Shown here: positions 2,364 to 7,963 of the stretch, piece after piece
How the letters are laid out: each line of letters starts with the position of its first letter
How positions within the stretch are numbered: position 1 is the stretch's first letter
Assembly: GCA_046598935.1 (NCBI GenBank)
Contig: JBKJHW010000046.1
Coordinates: forward strand, 7,071-71,070
DNA length: 64,000 nucleotides
Source of the DNA: Vicinamibacterales bacterium
GTDB taxonomy: Bacteria > Acidobacteriota > Vicinamibacteria > Vicinamibacterales > SCN-69-37
Direction of reading: 5' to 3'
The notes under the pieces: generated by a model
What the model was told of the DNA's origin: nothing
Seen by the model: only the letters and a program-made list of their open reading frames with translations
Database searches by the model: none
Made by a program: the position numbers and the translations under genes

Positions 2364-3332
2364 CTACTTGGGGGTACCGGGCGGCGATGGTGCCCGTCCG
2401 GCAGATACTCGCGCCCGCTCCTCGACACGCCGCTCGAGTGTTGCCGACAAGACGTTGAGGTCATCCTCGGCGGCCTCACGTTTGTCGTCGGCCGCCATCA
2501 CTGACCGTGTCGTGAGGAGGATGAGGGCCGTCATCGCCATCATCATGGTCACCACAAGAAGGGCGAGGCCGAACTCCGTGCCAAACCAACCCGCTCGCTG
2601 GCCGGCGAGCCGAAGCGACCCGGCGACCATCGGCACTGCCAGCGCCGCCGGGACGAGTCGGCGCGCCATCGACGGACCGGCGCCATCTGCAAGCAGGCTG
2701 ACCATCAGGGGCGTCTTGGGCTGCAGCAAAAGCACACCGCTTGCCAACACGGCAAACAGGATGGCGGTGTGAATCGCCATCGTTGTGTATGGCCCGATCC
2801 CGTAGAAGGCGCGAGCGTCAAAGAGATATCCGACAATCGCGACAGCTGCGAGCGCACCCACAAAAATCGCCAGCCACTCCGTCAAGCGTGACGATCGCCT
2901 TCGCGACGCCCGAGCGAGTGCGATACCGATGGCCATGAAACATACGGCCGTTGCGGGGGCCATTCGGCCGGGGGCAGACGTCCCGCCAGTCTGGCCGTCG
3001 CGCACGAGTGCCTCGTCGATCCCCAGGTTCCAACCGAACAAATCCTGGCTGAGCGTCACTCCTGCGATCGCGGCGACGATCGTCCCCAGTGCCGCCGCGG
3101 CGGATGGCCCGGTCACACCGGGCCGGACCGAGGCGAGCAAAGCCCCGACCAACACGAATGTGAATGCCGTGTTGGCCTTCATGCTTGCCAGAGTTTCAAT
3201 AGGCTGGACAAGGATCCGCGTGTCCGTGAACCAGCCAACCAAGACCAGCAGACCGCCAGTTGCGACCGAAAGTCCGCAACCTCGTGCAATCGAACGCGCT
3301 CGCTGGAGGCGGTGAAACGGGATGTGAGTCAT
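2364..3332 (-). CDS. polytopic membrane protein resembling the N-terminal sensor module of a histidine kinase, with no kinase core
   Basis: There are about 8 hydrophobic segments. The protein ends in a coiled-coil linker, LSATLERRVEERA, and then stops. No HisKA or HATPase sequence follows. Confidence 0.55.
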   Translation of the reverse strand: MTHIPFHRLQRARSIARGCGLSVATGGLLVLVGWFTDTRILVQPIETLASMKANTAFTFVLVGALLASVRPGVTGPSAAAALGTIVAAIAGVTLSQDLFGWNLGIDEALVRDGQTGGTSAPGRMAPATAVCFMAIGIALARASRRRSSRLTEWLAIFVGALAAVAIVGYLFDARAFYGIGPYTTMAIHTAILFAVLASGVLLLQPKTPLMVSLLADGAGPSMARRLVPAALAVPMVAGSLRLAGQRAGWFGTEFGLALLVVTMMMAMTALILLTTRSVMAADDKREAAEDDLNVLSATLERRVEERARVSAGRAPSPPGTPK

Positions 3333-3422: not shown

Positions 3423-3767
3423 GGGGGCGACTTGGCTTCGACGGGGGCAAGGGATCGTTGGATGCATGCCGAGCTCCATTGACTCGTTAAACCGATGGAA
3501 AAACCACTAACTGCGAACACGCAGCTAGCCCTCGCGGCCTAACGGCACGCGACGTTCACCCTGACCAGCCTGCGGGTCGGGACTGAATGTCATTTCAGCA
3601 GGCTGGCCCCGGCTCGAGTCCGTGTTGTCGGGGCGAGATTCAGCGGACTAGCGGTCGGCGCTTTCGCCGCACTTATACGTCGATCGCGAAATTTGAAGCA
3701 CGGCTACGCATGTAGATTCTGACGACGACAGGCCTTTCGGACGCGGGTTCGACTCCCGCCGCCTCCA
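3423..3767 (+). ncRNA. ssrA: tmRNA (SsrA)
   Basis: The 5' GGGGGCG pairs with the 3' CGCCTCC, including the G3:U alanine identity pair. The T-arm GGGTTCGACTCCCGC is present. The tag reading frame GCG AAC ACG CAG CTA GCC CTC GCG GCC TAA (3513..3542) encodes ANTQLALAA. CCA is not encoded. Confidence 0.9.
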
Positions 3768-3783
3768 CTTTCTTCTCACTTCG

Positions 3784-3878: not shown

Positions 3879-4625
3879 CTAGCGTACGAATAGCTGCGCC
3901 GAATCGCCGCCCAGTATCGCGAAATACGCGAACGCGAGATCGCCCGCGAAGTGCAACGCCATGCCGGGGAGGATCGAACCGGATCTCTGAGCCAGGTACC
4001 CGTAGACCACCGACGCGAGGAAGAATCCTGGCGCAACGGTGACGAGATACGCGAGACCGTGCGAGATGTGAAGCAGCGTGAAAACGGCACTCGTTGCGAC
4101 AATGGCGAATGTGGGGCCGATGCGTTCGAGATGGCTCTGCATATATCCACGAAACGCCATCTCTTCGACAACACCGGCGACCAGCGGTCCCATCAGCAGG
4201 ACGGAGAGACGAATTGCCGTCGTCGGATAGACACTGATGTCTTGGGGCGCGCTACTGGCTCCCATGAGCACGTACACCACCGAGAGCCCGACCATCGCGG
4301 CGATCAAGCCCAGAATCGTGGCCAGGTTGTCTCCAGACCATGCGCCCGGCTCCGGCCGCCAGAGCCGCAGATGAAACCGTCGAGACGCTGATGTGCTTCG
4401 CGGCCACCCCCGGCCGCTGAGCCATACGAGCATCAGGATCAACAGGCACCCGGTCGCCGCAGCTGCCCATGGCACTTCCGGATGCTCGCGCACGTTCCTC
4501 CTGATCAAAGCGACCCATGACAGCGTCCCCACGAACTGAATCGGGAGGGCCATCAGAAGCGCGACGACGACGGTCTTGCCGACCGTGGGTATCGCTGTCT
4601 TCGGCGTGACGACGGAATCGGTCAT
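3879..4625 (-). CDS. CPBP family (CAAX/Abi-like) intramembrane metalloprotease
   Basis: Motifs EEMAFRGY and FTLLHISHG are present, with multiple transmembrane segments. The start overlaps the upstream stop (ATGA). Confidence 0.8.
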   Translation of the reverse strand: MTDSVVTPKTAIPTVGKTVVVALLMALPIQFVGTLSWVALIRRNVREHPEVPWAAAATGCLLILMLVWLSGRGWPRSTSASRRFHLRLWRPEPGAWSGDNLATILGLIAAMVGLSVVYVLMGASSAPQDISVYPTTAIRLSVLLMGPLVAGVVEEMAFRGYMQSHLERIGPTFAIVATSAVFTLLHISHGLAYLVTVAPGFFLASVVYGYLAQRSGSILPGMALHFAGDLAFAYFAILGGDSAQLFVR

Positions 4626-4858
4626 GGTGCTTCCTCTCGTGAAGATGGTGCGGGATCCTGGGTCTCGCGATCAAAAAGTCCGAACACCCAGCACATGGGA
4701 CAGCCGCGAAACGCGACGAGCGCCAATAGAACCGTGGGGATCGCGACAAACAGCTGTCGCGTCGACATCGCGACAGCCAGCAGCGCGAAGCCAGCGGCAC
4801 CGCGCACGAGCCAGATGTAGCGCGCGCGACGCCCGGTCGGGCAAATCGACGCCCTCAT
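4622..4858 (-). CDS. DUF2892 (YgaP-like) small membrane protein with a CPMC motif
   Basis: 78 aa with two hydrophobic helices and the pattern R..R...G...L....FRGCPMCWVFG, typical of DUF2892. It has ATGA overlaps with both neighbouring genes. Confidence 0.65.
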   Translation of the reverse strand: MRASICPTGRRARYIWLVRGAAGFALLAVAMSTRQLFVAIPTVLLALVAFRGCPMCWVFGLFDRETQDPAPSSREEAP

Positions 4859-5418
4859 GTCCCGCTCCCCGTTAACTGGCTCCGAGCCGCTGCGCGCGCG
4901 CGACGCAGAAGACTCTTCGTGGCCTCTCCTGAGATGGCCAGGCGCCGCGAGATCTCGCGGATCTTTAACTCTTCAAAATCGCGCAGCAGGATGATCTGAC
5001 GGTATTTTTCGGGCAGGGCCGCCAACATTCGCGCTACGTCGATGCGGAGCTGATCGGCGGGCGCGTGCGCGAAGCGCGCTGAGTTCTCGATGGTCTTTAG
5101 CTCCTCGACGCTGCGCATGAACATCAACACAGGGAGGGCGCAGAGCCGTGCCACGATTCTCACGAGCCAGGCGCCCAGCGCGGCGGGGTTACGAACGTCG
5201 CCGACGCGCCGGTAGACGACGATCAGCGCTTCCTGCACGACGTCCTCGATGGATGACGACGCATAGCACTGGAAACGGGCATAGCGCTGAATGTCGGGTC
5301 GCAGCTGCGACAGCAGCCGCTCAAGCGCTGCGCGGTCGCCCGCTTGCGCCGCCGCGAAAAGGTCCTTGTCAACGCGCAACATCAGGTTTCTACCCGATAA
5401 GAGGGGGCGCCGAGGCAA
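4855..5418 (-). CDS. ECF-type RNA polymerase sigma-70 family factor
   Basis: Region 2 (DVVQEALIVVYRR) and region 4 (LPEKYRQIILLRDFEELKIREISRRLAISGEATKSLLRRAR) are recognisable. An alternative start is M13 at 5382. Confidence 0.8.
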   Translation of the reverse strand: MPRRPLLSGRNLMLRVDKDLFAAAQAGDRAALERLLSQLRPDIQRYARFQCYASSSIEDVVQEALIVVYRRVGDVRNPAALGAWLVRIVARLCALPVLMFMRSVEELKTIENSARFAHAPADQLRIDVARMLAALPEKYRQIILLRDFEELKIREISRRLAISGEATKSLLRRARAAARSQLTGSGT

Positions 5419-5454
5419 AACGGGTCGCGCGCGCGAAGTTTTTCTGCGATATGG

Positions 5455-6231
5455 CTAACGCGTGTGCCCGTAGATCACGTAGTTGATCATCAGCTTGAAC
5501 GCCTCGTTTGACGGATCGACGAGATAGAAGCCGCTGCCCGAGTACTCCATGTAGTTGCCGAGGTCCATGTTGTAGTTGATGACGACCTGCAGTGGCTTGT
5601 TCGGATCGTTGTCCTGATAGATCCCGTAAAACTCTCCGAAAAGCCCGCCTTGCCCGCGGTTGCCGCGACCCCCAGGGTAGGGGATGCGCAGCGACGGGAC
5701 CTGGAAGAACGTGTTGTAGATCGGATGCTTCGCATCGAGCGGGACGATCTTCCCCTCAGGGAGCACGCGCTTCATCGCCGCTTCGAAGACCGCCCACTCG
5801 TTGTCGAAGTGGAAGTCGTCGATGATCAGGAACCCGCCCTTGTGGATGTAGTCGCGAAGGTTCTTGACGTGGTGGTCGGTCGGAAACCAATAGCCGGGTT
5901 CGGAGATGTAGGCGATCGGGTACTTGAAGATTGCCGGATCATCCATGTGGAGGATGTTCCGCCCTTCGGGCGTCGCCTGCGCGTTGCTGATCCTGGTCAG
6001 GATCGACATCATGTTCAGTTCCATGTCGGGGTAGTCGAACGACCAGCCGGGATAACGATCGTAGTGGAGGCGCACCATCGCGAATCTCCCGTCGTACGGC
6101 GCCTCGTAGTGTGACGGCGCGTTTCGCCCGTTGTCGTAATAGCGCTGGGCGCCGGCCGGGAGTGTTGTCAGGCCCAGCAGGGCCACGGCCAACGCGAGGC
6201 GTCGAAATGTCATGCGGCGCCCTGAGAGCAT
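5455..6231 (-). CDS. DUF4159 domain-containing secreted protein
   Basis: Contains the signal MTFRRLALAVALLGLTTLPAGAQ, the IAYISEPGYW and GGFLIIDDFH motifs, and the C-terminus NYVIYGHTR. The track ORF extends to 6474, but that extension is Arg/Ala junk overlapping the divergent gene. The start is 6231 or 6213. Confidence 0.7.
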   Translation of the reverse strand: MLSGRRMTFRRLALAVALLGLTTLPAGAQRYYDNGRNAPSHYEAPYDGRFAMVRLHYDRYPGWSFDYPDMELNMMSILTRISNAQATPEGRNILHMDDPAIFKYPIAYISEPGYWFPTDHHVKNLRDYIHKGGFLIIDDFHFDNEWAVFEAAMKRVLPEGKIVPLDAKHPIYNTFFQVPSLRIPYPGGRGNRGQGGLFGEFYGIYQDNDPNKPLQVVINYNMDLGNYMEYSGSGFYLVDPSNEAFKLMINYVIYGHTR

Positions 6232-6254
6232 AATCCTTCCGTGCCGCGCGTCGA

Positions 6255-6260
6255 TAGAAT
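6255..6260 (+). promoter_or_regulatory. candidate -10 box TAGAAT, 10 nt upstream of the GIY-YIG gene ATG
   Basis: The sequence reads cgaTAGAATgactgcggctATG. The -35 is weak. Confidence 0.35.
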
Positions 6261-6270
6261 GACTGCGGCT

Positions 6271-6519
6271 ATGCCGCATTGGGTCTACATCGTCCGCTGC
6301 AACGACGGCTCGCTTTATACCGGCTACGCCAAGGACCCGTCCGCGCGCCTTCTGCGTCATAACAGTGGGAAAGGCGCGAAGTACACCGCCGGCCGCCGGC
6401 CGGTGACGCTCGTGTTCACCCAGAAATTTCGCTCGCTCAGCCGGGCCCTGAAGCGGGAACATGAGCTGAAGCAATGGACTCGCGCCAAAAAAGAAGCCTT
6501 GGTCTCCGCGTCGCGCTGA
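6271..6519 (+). CDS. GIY-YIG nuclease family protein (UPF0213/YhbQ-like)
   Basis: Sequence MPHWVYIVRCNDGSLYTGYAKDPSARLLRHNSG...REHELKQW matches the family. The internal ATG at 6271 is preferred over the GTG at 6241. Confidence 0.8.
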   Translation: MPHWVYIVRCNDGSLYTGYAKDPSARLLRHNSGKGAKYTAGRRPVTLVFTQKFRSLSRALKREHELKQWTRAKKEALVSASR

Positions 6520-6974
6520 TCGCCCTCACGCTGGTGTGGCTGGCGTCCAATCGCTTTGGGTTACCGACGCGAACCGGCGACGCCGGAGCCGACGGCCAGC
6601 CGGTGACGCTCGAGATCCTCGCGCCGTACAAAGGCAAAGTCATTCTCGTGAACCTCTTCGCCACCTGGTGCGGGCCATGTATCGCCGAGATCCCGGACCT
6701 GGTGAAGCTCCAGGCGGCCCATCCCGGCCTTGCGGTCATCGGCCTGCAGGTCATGGACATCGGTGGCGAGCCGCTCGACACATTTCGAGGGCGACTCGGC
6801 ATTACGTACCCGCTGATCGACGCGAATGATAATCCTGAGATCGACCAGGCGTTCGGCTCGCCCGACGTCCTGCCGATGTCGTACATCATCGACAAAGACG
6901 GCCACATCGTCGCGATTTTGACCGGCCGGACCCGGCTGGAAGAATTCGAAAGACGGCTGGCGCCTTACTTCTGA
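6474..6974 (+). CDS. TlpA/ResA-like thiol:disulfide oxidoreductase (thioredoxin fold)
   Basis: Contains a signal anchor and the WCGPC active site in VNLFATWCGPCIAEIP. It overlaps the upstream gene by 46 nt if the ATG at 6474 is used. Confidence 0.8.
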   Translation: MDSRQKRSLGLRVALIALTLVWLASNRFGLPTRTGDAGADGQPVTLEILAPYKGKVILVNLFATWCGPCIAEIPDLVKLQAAHPGLAVIGLQVMDIGGEPLDTFRGRLGITYPLIDANDNPEIDQAFGSPDVLPMSYIIDKDGHIVAILTGRTRLEEFERRLAPYF

Positions 6975-7015: not shown

Positions 7016-7963
7016 ATGTCTCTGGACCACCGGTTTCGCGAGATCGTCGAAGCCTTTGTCGCCCGCGTTCGTCGGGATATGGACTCACATGTCCAGGGCC
7101 TGACGAGCGACCTGCTTCGAATGGGCTCGGAGAACCAGGAATACTGGCGCTCAACGCTCGAGCGCGCGGTGACCGACGCGCGGCAGGACGCCGAGCGCGG
7201 CTTCAAGGCCCGGCTCGAAGCCCTGAGAAATGAGCTGACCCGCGAAATGGAGCAGCGCCTCTCGACCGAGCGCCAGCAGCTTCAAGCCGCGACGCTCGCG
7301 GCGACGCAAGCCGCGGCTGAAGCGGCCAACGCCGTGAGCGCAGCCCACGTGGCCAGCGCGCAATCGGCGGCGCACGCCGCGACAGTCGTCACCGCTGCTG
7401 CGCCCCGTGCCGCTGTTCCGGAAACCGGCGTTCGCGAAGCCCGGCGCGAAGCCCGGATCGATACCCTCGAACGCTTGCTCGGCGCGGTTCGACGACTCGA
7501 TGAAGCGAATTCGCTGACAGCCATCCTCGACACACTGGCCAAAGGGGCGTCCGAAGAGACCTCCCGCGTGACGATCCTCCTCGTGGACGGCGATCTGTTG
7601 AAGCCGTGGTCATCCCACGGATTCGCTCCGGGCCACGCCCCGACGGTCATTCCGATCGGCTCAGCGGGTGTGCTGACCGCGACAGTCGCGCTGAAGCAAA
7701 CGTCGTACGTTAAACCGATGATTGCTCGCGATCTGACGACCCCGACCTTCATGCAGGTGCCCGTCGGCCACACGGGCCTCATCGTCCCGCTTGTCGTCGG
7801 CGGGGAGGTTGTGGCGGTCCTTTACGCTGACGATGTCGGCCAGAAGGAAGAGCACGTGGATTCGCCGATCTGGACCGAGGAACTTGATCTGCTGGTCCGG
7901 CACGCGGCGCTGCGCCTCGAAAATCTCACGTCCGTGAGGACGACCGAGGCTCTGGGCTCATGA
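7016..7963 (+). CDS. coiled-coil/Ala-rich protein with a C-terminal GAF-like domain
   Basis: The C-terminal part (RVTILLVDGDLLKPWSSHGF...LIVPLVVGGEVVAVLYADD) is GAF-like. The ATG at 7016 is chosen because the TTG at 6977 coincides with the -35 box. Confidence 0.6.
   Translation: MSLDHRFREIVEAFVARVRRDMDSHVQGLTSDLLRMGSENQEYWRSTLERAVTDARQDAERGFKARLEALRNELTREMEQRLSTERQQLQAATLAATQAAAEAANAVSAAHVASAQSAAHAATVVTAAAPRAAVPETGVREARREARIDTLERLLGAVRRLDEANSLTAILDTLAKGASEETSRVTILLVDGDLLKPWSSHGFAPGHAPTVIPIGSAGVLTATVALKQTSYVKPMIARDLTTPTFMQVPVGHTGLIVPLVVGGEVVAVLYADDVGQKEEHVDSPIWTEELDLLVRHAALRLENLTSVRTTEALGS

Follow-up and report, generated by a model that had tools for sequence, protein, structure and literature searches.

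A conserved gene pair of a two-cysteine ECF sigma factor and a putative CPxC membrane anti-sigma factor, accompanied by a CPBP protease in one bacterial lineage

The operon and its three genes

The window analysed here is a 64,000-nucleotide stretch of contig JBKJHW010000046.1 (assembly GCA_046598935.1, forward strand, positions 7,071 to 71,070) from a Vicinamibacterales bacterium. Its minus strand carries a gene for an extracytoplasmic function (ECF) sigma factor, followed by genes for a 78-amino acid (aa) membrane protein with a CPMC motif and for a CPBP (Rce1-like) protease (Table 1). A preliminary description of this DNA had proposed that the small protein is a minimal, possibly redox-sensing anti-sigma factor that is cleaved by the protease. 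Genes for the sigma factor and the small protein were found side by side in at least five phyla, and the protease gene accompanies them in a single clade.

The three open reading frames (ORFs) and the two ATGA junctions that had been reported were read directly in the sequence. Sigma and small genes share 4 bp at positions 4855-4858, and small and CPBP genes share 4 bp at positions 4622-4625 ('tcat' on the plus strand in both cases). These are judged to be real genes and not chance ORFs because relatives of the small protein number 54, at 54-71% identity, and almost every one of them is exactly 78 aa long. Pfam confirmed the ECF assignment of the first protein, which matched Sigma70_r2 and r4_2 only (PF04542, PF08281 and PF04545), with no further domain. 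It scored 56.3 against TIGR02937 (cut-off 42.9), as ECF (group 4) sigma-70 factors do; among the NCBIfam models this sigma70-ECF superfamily model was the only one passed, and no group-specific equivalog was reached (best PRK11922, 73.9 against 204). Comparison with relatives places the start of the sigma protein at the ATG at 5382 and not at the TTG at 5418, because all relatives measure 174-175 aa and one of them (P0179, 175 aa) is 100% identical. The TTG falls within the promoter block described below. Another relative, at 85% identity, is labelled Vicinamibacterales.

The ORF of the two-helix protein with the CPMC motif was likewise confirmed. The CPBP protein matched PF02517 with 66.4 bits (cut-off 22.4), its sole Pfam match at E<=0.1, and carries the motifs EExxxR (E154-E155...R159), FxxxH (F182...H186) and HxxxD (H225...D229). 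These catalytic motifs, the first two of which had been recognised before, are invariant in seven clade members and mark the protein as CPBP/Rce1-like. Neither zf-HC2 nor RskA was found by Pfam in any of the three proteins, in agreement with the reported absence of a ZAS or RskA-type domain. An anti-phage defence reading of the 'Abi' domain was rejected, since none of the three proteins matched a PADLOC model.

Upstream of the sigma gene lies a block of the form GACCCGTTTT-N10-CCCCTCTTAT, which ends 14 nt before the ATG and is of ECF type: CTCTTAT resembles a -10 element, and the -35-like element is accompanied by a T-tract. Across the clade it takes the form GACCCGTTTT-N10-CC(C/T)CTC(T/C)T(A/G)T, 14 nt upstream of the sigma ATG and in the same register at all loci, the DNA further upstream being unrelated. 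It occurs once in the 64-kb window, even when up to 4 mismatches are allowed. The three genes are probably transcribed together as one operon, from a conserved promoter of ECF type that is probably driven by the operon's own sigma factor (autoregulation).

Table 1. Positions of the features in the window and at related loci, and loci with additional small genes
Feature	Locus	Positions	Strand	Remarks
ECF sigma gene	window	4855-5382	-	175 aa from ATG; Pfam and relatives
Small two-helix membrane protein gene	window	4622-4858	-	78 aa; CPMC motif
CPBP (Rce1-like) protease gene	window	3879-4625	-	248 aa; PF02517 and catalytic motifs
Promoter-like block	window	5397-5426	-	kept in register upstream of clade sigma genes
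tmRNA gene	window	3423-3768	+	ARAGORN; convergent with the end of the CPBP gene
DUF4159 protein gene	window	5455-6474	-	128 bits
Polytopic membrane protein gene	window	2364-3332	-	322 aa; no family match
Thioredoxin-like protein gene	window	6474-6974	+	membrane-anchored; WCGPC
Sigma-small fusion P0176	L092	2198-3091		297 aa
Sigma-CPBP arrangement	L095	2397-3699
Extra promoter copies	L038	285-311; 1805-1831
Extra promoter copy	L039	7812-7838
Extra promoter copy	L071	2618-2644
Extra promoter copy	L057	2914-2940
Second small gene upstream of sigma	L016, L021, L023, L025, L026, L031, L032, L036, L039, L051, L053, L062, L063, L064, L065, L068, L069, L073, L076, L085
Micropeptide upstream of sigma	L019, L020, L022, L024, L027-L030, L034, L035, L041, L043, L046, L054, L058, L059, L067, L074, L075, L079, L081, L082, L084

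The sigma factor and its small partner across phyla

The wider scan took one genome per species and used the peptide RGCPMCW[VLI] as its only key, which yielded 80 loci. These belong to Acidobacteriota, Actinomycetota (including Streptomyces, Nocardia and Solirubrobacterales), Pseudomonadota (Alpha- and Betaproteobacteria), Armatimonadota, Gemmatimonas and Myxococcota-type metagenome-assembled genomes (MAGs). A sigma gene of the same family was located immediately upstream and on the same strand in 61 of the 80 loci (a count that takes in L077 after correction of its ORF start) and 0.2-3 kb away on the same strand in six; one locus was too short to judge. The sigma/small junctions were overlaps of -4, -8 or -11 nt, or short gaps. 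Antisense shadow ORFs (clusters c1 and c6), which greedy ORF calling produced in this high-GC DNA, were disregarded. A conserved membrane protein at position +1, the structural mark of a cognate sigma/anti-sigma pair, is therefore present in 61/80 loci. By this comparison the sigma factor and the small protein are a conserved unit in at least five phyla, and the sigma-DUF2892-type pairing first described for this one locus holds well beyond it.

Two cysteines of the sigma factor, C39 and C81, were invariant in 58 of 58 sigmas paired with a small protein, the 58 being those whose sigma ORF could be cleanly extracted (loci L006-L085). Their spacing is 42 residues (41 in two of the 58), and they were also invariant in all 38 sequences of alignment A6. 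C39 lies at the end of region 2.1, directly before the (D/E)D..QEAL helix, and C81 in the region 2.4 helix. This invariance is not a sampling artefact, because the search key lay in the other protein. No cysteine occupies either position in the three solved ECF sigmas whose alignments were compared (AlgU-type sigma-H, E. coli sigma-E and SigW). The sigma factors make up a widespread and apparently uncharacterised ECF group marked by two sigma-2 cysteines; the ECF Hub may already contain this group as an uncharacterised entry. EcfQ/Blr3042 (ECF33) differs from it in its mapped promoter, GCAGAC-N20-TAACAAT.

Seven residues of the small protein do not vary within the clade (R19, G20, R51, G52, P54, C56 and W57), and C53 and C6 are nearly invariant. 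The family motif is in fact CPxC, because both natural fusions described below show CPTC and the close-clade homologue P0039 carries CPIC instead of CPMC. The K+R charge amounts to 3.8 for the N-terminal part, 0.7 for the loop and 4.1 for the C-terminal part; because of this distribution an N-in/C-in topology is predicted, with the Cys/His residues facing the cytoplasm at the membrane surface. Of the 77 small proteins of the wider family, 68 have a His before the LxRG element, 42 an N-terminal Cys and 29 a C-terminal Cx3-4C pair, either of the last two being present in 71. The family is large (more than 3,100 clusters at 90% identity in a profile search). The 120 clusters listed were all 'hypothetical' except for two UniRef 'DUF2892' and two generic membrane-protein labels, and no anti-sigma label was found among them.

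The DUF2892 label given to the small protein stands at most as probable distant homology, and not as Pfam membership. PF11127 (DUF2892/YgaP-like_TM) gave 16.9 bits, below the gathering cut-off of 25.3, and matched 6 of 24 clade members at E<1. The hhalign comparison of the window-type family with operon-linked true DUF2892 proteins gave 71% probability (E 3.7e-5, 47 columns), in a register that shares the R..G element, both helices and CPxC. Like the YgaP-like transmembrane (TM) proteins, the small protein is a two-helix hairpin with R...G before helix 1 and C-P after helix 2, but its profile did not match YgaP or other solved structures in the PDB. On these profile comparisons it is best called a probable distant DUF2892 relative. 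Three known anti-sigma types did not fit: there was no zf-HC2 match at E<=0.1 and no His three residues before CPMC, as a ZAS domain would require; neither the small protein nor CPBP matched an RskA model of Pfam or NCBIfam; and there was no match to DUF1109 (NrsF/OsrA), which has six TM helices versus two helices in 78 aa here. With a pLDDT of 57, the small protein's monomer model was too poor for a fold search; it shows only a hairpin of helices with a break at RGCP.

Other lineages have one more small gene between the promoter and the sigma gene (Table 1). At loci of Proteobacteria, Acidobacteriaceae and Acetobacteraceae it is a bona fide DUF2892 gene (48-55 bits), with the motif GFCPxCA in the proteobacterial members and WCPVCA in the Acidobacteriaceae loci L031 and L063. 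In Actinomycetota and Solirubrobacterales it is an unannotated micropeptide of 26-48 aa, which has an Arg-rich tail and carries CxC or CCC in its single helix. Neither gene occurs upstream of sigma in the window clade, because the promoter abuts the sigma ATG; CPBP is present there instead.

Of 65 sigma genes, 33 have the family-wide form of the promoter, GAAYCC-TTT(T)-N10-13-CCTCT, in their upstream DNA, where its background density predicts about 1.6. Strict matches in the genome loci numbered 45, of which 29 were the operon's own. Extra copies precede a gene for a signal-peptide thioredoxin (PF00085) in the Burkholderiales loci L038, L039 and L071; a CcdA/DsbD-type gene follows directly downstream of the thioredoxin in L039, and the same gene cluster is present in L038 and L071. 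Further copies precede additional DUF2892 genes in L038 and L057, a DUF5360 gene in L039 and, in Solirubrobacterales, a gene close to the operon on its upstream side that encodes a secreted protein of no known family. In 7 loci the pair is followed by an AhpD/CMD gene that has CxxC. Taken together, the genes so marked point to envelope thiol redox as the theme of the regulon.

A search with a profile built from concatenated sigma/small pairs ranked two in-frame natural fusions first: P0176, from a Micromonospora sp. genome, and P0175 (375 aa), from a metagenome. Both have an intact sigma-4 followed by a small domain with CPTC. These fusions are rare, and they fit a physical partnership of sigma and small protein. 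In the P0176 model, built on alignment A6, the actinobacterial CxDGxC is located on a beta-hairpin right after the CPxC helix, in a zinc-ribbon-like arrangement. An apparent 175+78 fusion, P0177 (L093), was rejected because it is a frameshift artefact: its sigma-4 is garbled, and its contig also carries a truncated CPBP. A mixed alignment for the fusion (A5) was discarded, since MAFFT had placed the sigma-4 of those rows that contain sigma only over the small domain. In that alignment the sigma-4 recognition helix (LGLSxxAMKSRLHRAR) resembles the post-CPxC helix of the small protein (xGLxxTxSxGRLxRxC), probably by chance.

One important question is whether the sigma factor needs a partner for sensing at all. 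It might itself detect redox state or metal through C39/C81, in the style of the SigK disulfide or of CorE metal binding, with the small proteins and CPBP as outputs, or with the small proteins as redox-relay or metal-handling partners. CPxC is a classic redox-active motif. The invariance of C39/C81 is consistent with this idea, and so are the two-Cys sigma without a small protein at locus L095 and the additional DUF2892 genes, which own promoter copies and behave as regulon members. Conserved Cys pairs also occur in several ECF groups, according to PMC7826278. The same source, however, gives the +1 position with a (near-)overlapping stop/start, kept here across phyla, as the signature of a cognate anti-sigma factor, and the fusions tether sigma to a membrane hairpin, which is hard to square with a pure output role. 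We consider sensing by sigma alone rather improbable.

The three-gene cassette and its CPBP protease

The three-gene cassette was present in every clade locus whose contig extends far enough. Sizes were constant (sigma 174-175 aa, small protein 78 aa, CPBP 247-248 aa) and both 4-bp overlaps were identical in all clade cassettes. Two MAGs with a Vicinamibacterales-type cassette (L006 and L008) are labelled 'uncultured Bifidobacteriaceae', probably a binning or taxonomy error. The preliminary description had named a triad confined to this genome as a refuting result. The triad is kept beyond this genome, but within one clade only: no CPBP was detected in the 77 more distant sigma/small loci with the hidden Markov model of the clade CPBP, run with filters off at E<=1.

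The genes that flank the clade cassette differ each time (TonB receptor, DUF5916, patatin, PIN toxin and others). The adjacent tmRNA gene had been pointed out, and it is indeed there; this neighbourhood is incidental, because the flanking genes differ at every related locus. A tmRNA-linked genomic island was rejected, since the tmRNA 3' end has no further att-like copy in the 64-kb window. The DUF4159 protein gene adjoins the operon and, like the gene of the 322-aa polytopic membrane protein, is not kept beside the cassette elsewhere. The WCGPC protein, TlpA/ResA-like by eye, is encoded about 1 kb from the operon, past the DUF4159 gene, and there is no operon promoter motif near it.

With regard to its type, the Pfam scan of CPBP at E<=0.1 gave no PrsW-protease model, and no model of a myxosortase-type CPBP (MrtS, MrtJ, MrtX etc.) was passed (best MrtS, 57.7 against 130). 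No specific NCBIfam CPBP subfamily model reached its cut-off. Relatives down to 34% identity were collected in a metagenome scan with the CPBP alignment. At L095 and L096 (CPBP 46-47% identity) a two-Cys sigma gene is followed directly by CPBP, with a 14-nt overlap and no small protein. At L094 (75% identity) the sigma is truncated and the small gene gone, and CPBP is intact. Other relatives, at 34-46% identity, have no sigma within the available flanks. C60, a single Cys in an N-terminal transmembrane helix of CPBP, is invariant in the clade and absent from the CPBP of the L095 relative, which has no small protein.

CPBP is placed outside the conserved core because it is missing from the 77 distant loci and because sigma-CPBP loci without the small protein exist. 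This distribution indicates that CPBP is an independent gene family, recruited recently to the sigma operon in one (Vicinamibacterales-like) lineage, and that it is tied to the operon and not to the small protein specifically. The earlier idea of the triad as a functional unit finds no support in the form in which it was put, given a sister lineage in which CPBP follows sigma without the small protein and distant CPBP relatives without a nearby sigma.

Cleavage of the small anti-sigma factor by CPBP, in or at the membrane and on a signal, would free sigma in the manner of the PrsW/RsiW/SigW system of Bacillus. PrsW, which cuts RsiW, is counted among the relatives of the CPBP superfamily, and the likeness lies in a polytopic CPBP-like-superfamily protease paired with the membrane anti-sigma of an ECF sigma factor. 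However, the sigW operon does not include the gene for PrsW, and RsiW belongs to the classical ZAS-type anti-sigma factors with a single membrane pass, whereas the CPBP described here matches PF02517 only and is dispensable for the family at large. The strictly kept ATGA coupling of small and CPBP genes in the clade would suit cleavage, and the invariant catalytic residues suggest that a protease activity is under selection. The presence of CPBP also coincides with a His-to-Trp change at position 16 of the small protein, a conserved C-terminal tail and the loss of the upstream DUF2892. On the other hand, the absence of CPBP from all 77 more distant loci implies that the core switch works without it, at L095/L096 CPBP follows sigma and there is no small protein, and CPBP has stayed intact at L094 despite the truncated sigma and the lost small gene. 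The 34-46% relatives stand without a nearby sigma, and no publication was found that joins ECF anti-sigmas and CPBP/CAAX proteases in one operon. The comparison of loci does not back cleavage of the small protein, which is less probable than that CPBP serves as an output or accessory protein; as an account of how sigma is released, we regard it as unlikely.

The arrangement at L095/L096, where CPBP is itself the +1 membrane protein and overlaps the sigma stop by 14 nt, raises the alternative that CPBP is a non-proteolytic membrane anchor or anti-sigma-like partner of sigma, and that the small protein is an adaptor. The Abi-domain proteins Abx1 and SpdC, which act with histidine kinases without proteolysis, provide an analogy, and the N-terminal cytoplasmic segment of CPBP and its C60 are invariant in the clade. 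Nevertheless, the fully conserved catalytic residues point to an enzyme function, and just two sigma-CPBP contigs were found. Such an anchoring role seems very unlikely.

A candidate cysteine-dependent anti-sigma switch

The 78-aa protein is very probably a cysteine-based partner of the sigma factor. The reading that we prefer, and to which we would give about an even chance, is an autoregulated operon in which the 78-aa hairpin is the cognate cysteine-dependent membrane anti-sigma factor, with CPBP as a lineage-specific output or accessory protein. The sigma factor would transcribe its own operon from the promoter directly upstream, and the small hairpin would hold it inactive through a cysteine-dependent contact at the cytoplasmic face of the membrane. 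A bound metal such as Zn might make up this contact, or else a thiol/disulfide state, possibly with the sigma's own cysteines taking part, and sigma would be freed once the thiols are oxidised, alkylated or stripped of metal. CPBP would most likely be a regulated output or an accessory membrane partner, and not an obligatory anti-sigma protease. The proposal of a minimal redox-sensing anti-sigma factor is accordingly supported in part: pair conservation, sigma cysteines, fusions and the thiol regulon speak for it, and the CPBP triad as a unit is not borne out.

Several observations weigh against the anti-sigma reading. The RGCPMCW stretch is invariant among the genome loci by construction, being the search pattern itself. 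At 12 of the 80 loci with a small protein no sigma was detected; in three of these sigma-less loci (L011, L061 and L083) the gene directly upstream encodes an AraC-family regulator and a topoisomerase gene lies downstream, and L037, L040, L048, L056, L060, L070, L072 and L078 are further cases. In place of the His that precedes the LxRG element elsewhere, the window clade has Trp (position 16), and it has only three cysteines including C6; the small protein of the window contains no His at all. Its cytoplasmic parts are very short (about 15 and about 20 residues). The P0176 model has confident domains (pLDDT 80) but a pTM of 0.39, so that no docking of sigma and hairpin is defined. A rough estimate of helix geometry suggests that the distance between C39 and C81 may be too large for them to share a site. 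Finally, the promoter scan of this genome covers the 64 kb of the window.

A bolder and doubtful extension of the anti-sigma reading can be drawn from the same residues. The sigma-2 cysteines, together with the CPxC knuckle from one mini-membrane protein or from two, might form an intermolecular metal or disulfide centre on the cytoplasmic side of the membrane, a ZAS-like switch split between sigma and anti-sigma. This would be a new minimal anti-sigma class, spread over at least five phyla and in control of envelope thiol-redox repair, to which CPBP would add a proteolytic layer in Vicinamibacterales.

The switch proposed here resembles the ZAS systems (RsrA/SigR, ChrR, RslA) in having a Cys/His metal site whose oxidation would free an ECF sigma that drives a thiol-stress regulon. 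However, a ZAS domain comprises about 80-90 residues in four helices with HxxxCxxC, whereas here RGCPxCW stands at the end of a transmembrane helix without zf-HC2, and the other ligands would be distant in sequence or would possibly come from sigma. That a very short cytoplasmic peptide can block an ECF sigma factor is known from the CnrY/NepR-type class II anti-sigmas; these differ in being single-pass or soluble and in having no Cys motif, and no sequence similarity to them was detected. In SigK the Cys pair is located in sigma-4, and the CorE cysteines lie in a C-terminal extension or linker, unlike the sigma factors of this family, where both cysteines fall within sigma-2 and the coupled partner is a membrane protein with CPxC. 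A likeness to SigK (ECF19) and CorE (ECF238) is seen in the sigma's own conserved cysteines, which are implicated in redox or metal control (PMC7826278, PMC8999054), the redox Cys pair of SigK being cited in the former.

A parallel in design is provided by ECF16 with its DUF1109 anti-sigmas (SigF/NrsF, EcfF/OsrA, BcrS/AbcS), where a membrane-integral anti-sigma factor without a canonical domain is encoded in an autoregulated operon. OsrA (PMC3420878) and AbcS (PMC8315932) are polytopic, Cys-dependent anti-sigmas without an anti-sigma domain, and the conserved cysteines of the DUF1109 proteins are needed for sigma binding and for the response to reactive oxygen species and HOCl (PMC3420878, PMC8315932). 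The regulons are alike as well, the ECF16 regulon including envelope thiol/methionine repair (PMC3420878, PMC8315932) and that of EcfF/OsrA including a periplasmic thioredoxin and a DsbD-like protein (PMC3420878). DUF1109 proteins differ in their size (about 210 aa) and six helices from the two-helix CPxC hairpins of 62-122 aa found here; moreover, in our family sigma itself carries two invariant Cys, and no sequence relationship was detected. The main text of the ECF reclassification paper (PMC7826278), which counts 14 groups with predicted two-helix anti-sigmas and notes conserved cysteines in several groups, names neither DUF2892 nor CAAX/CPBP. The literature search found no publication in which ECF sigmas are connected to DUF2892 or to an operon with CPBP.

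The protease, although eye-catching, is probably not the core of the mechanism. What the comparison brings forward is a family of more than 3,100 clusters, mostly 'hypothetical', in which a tiny CPxC membrane protein is coupled to a two-Cys sigma factor and, as the promoter copies suggest, to a thiol-redox regulon, and the defined promoter motif is usable for mapping that regulon. If the partner is indeed an anti-sigma factor, it would be among the smallest known and would represent a new way to build a thiol/metal switch.

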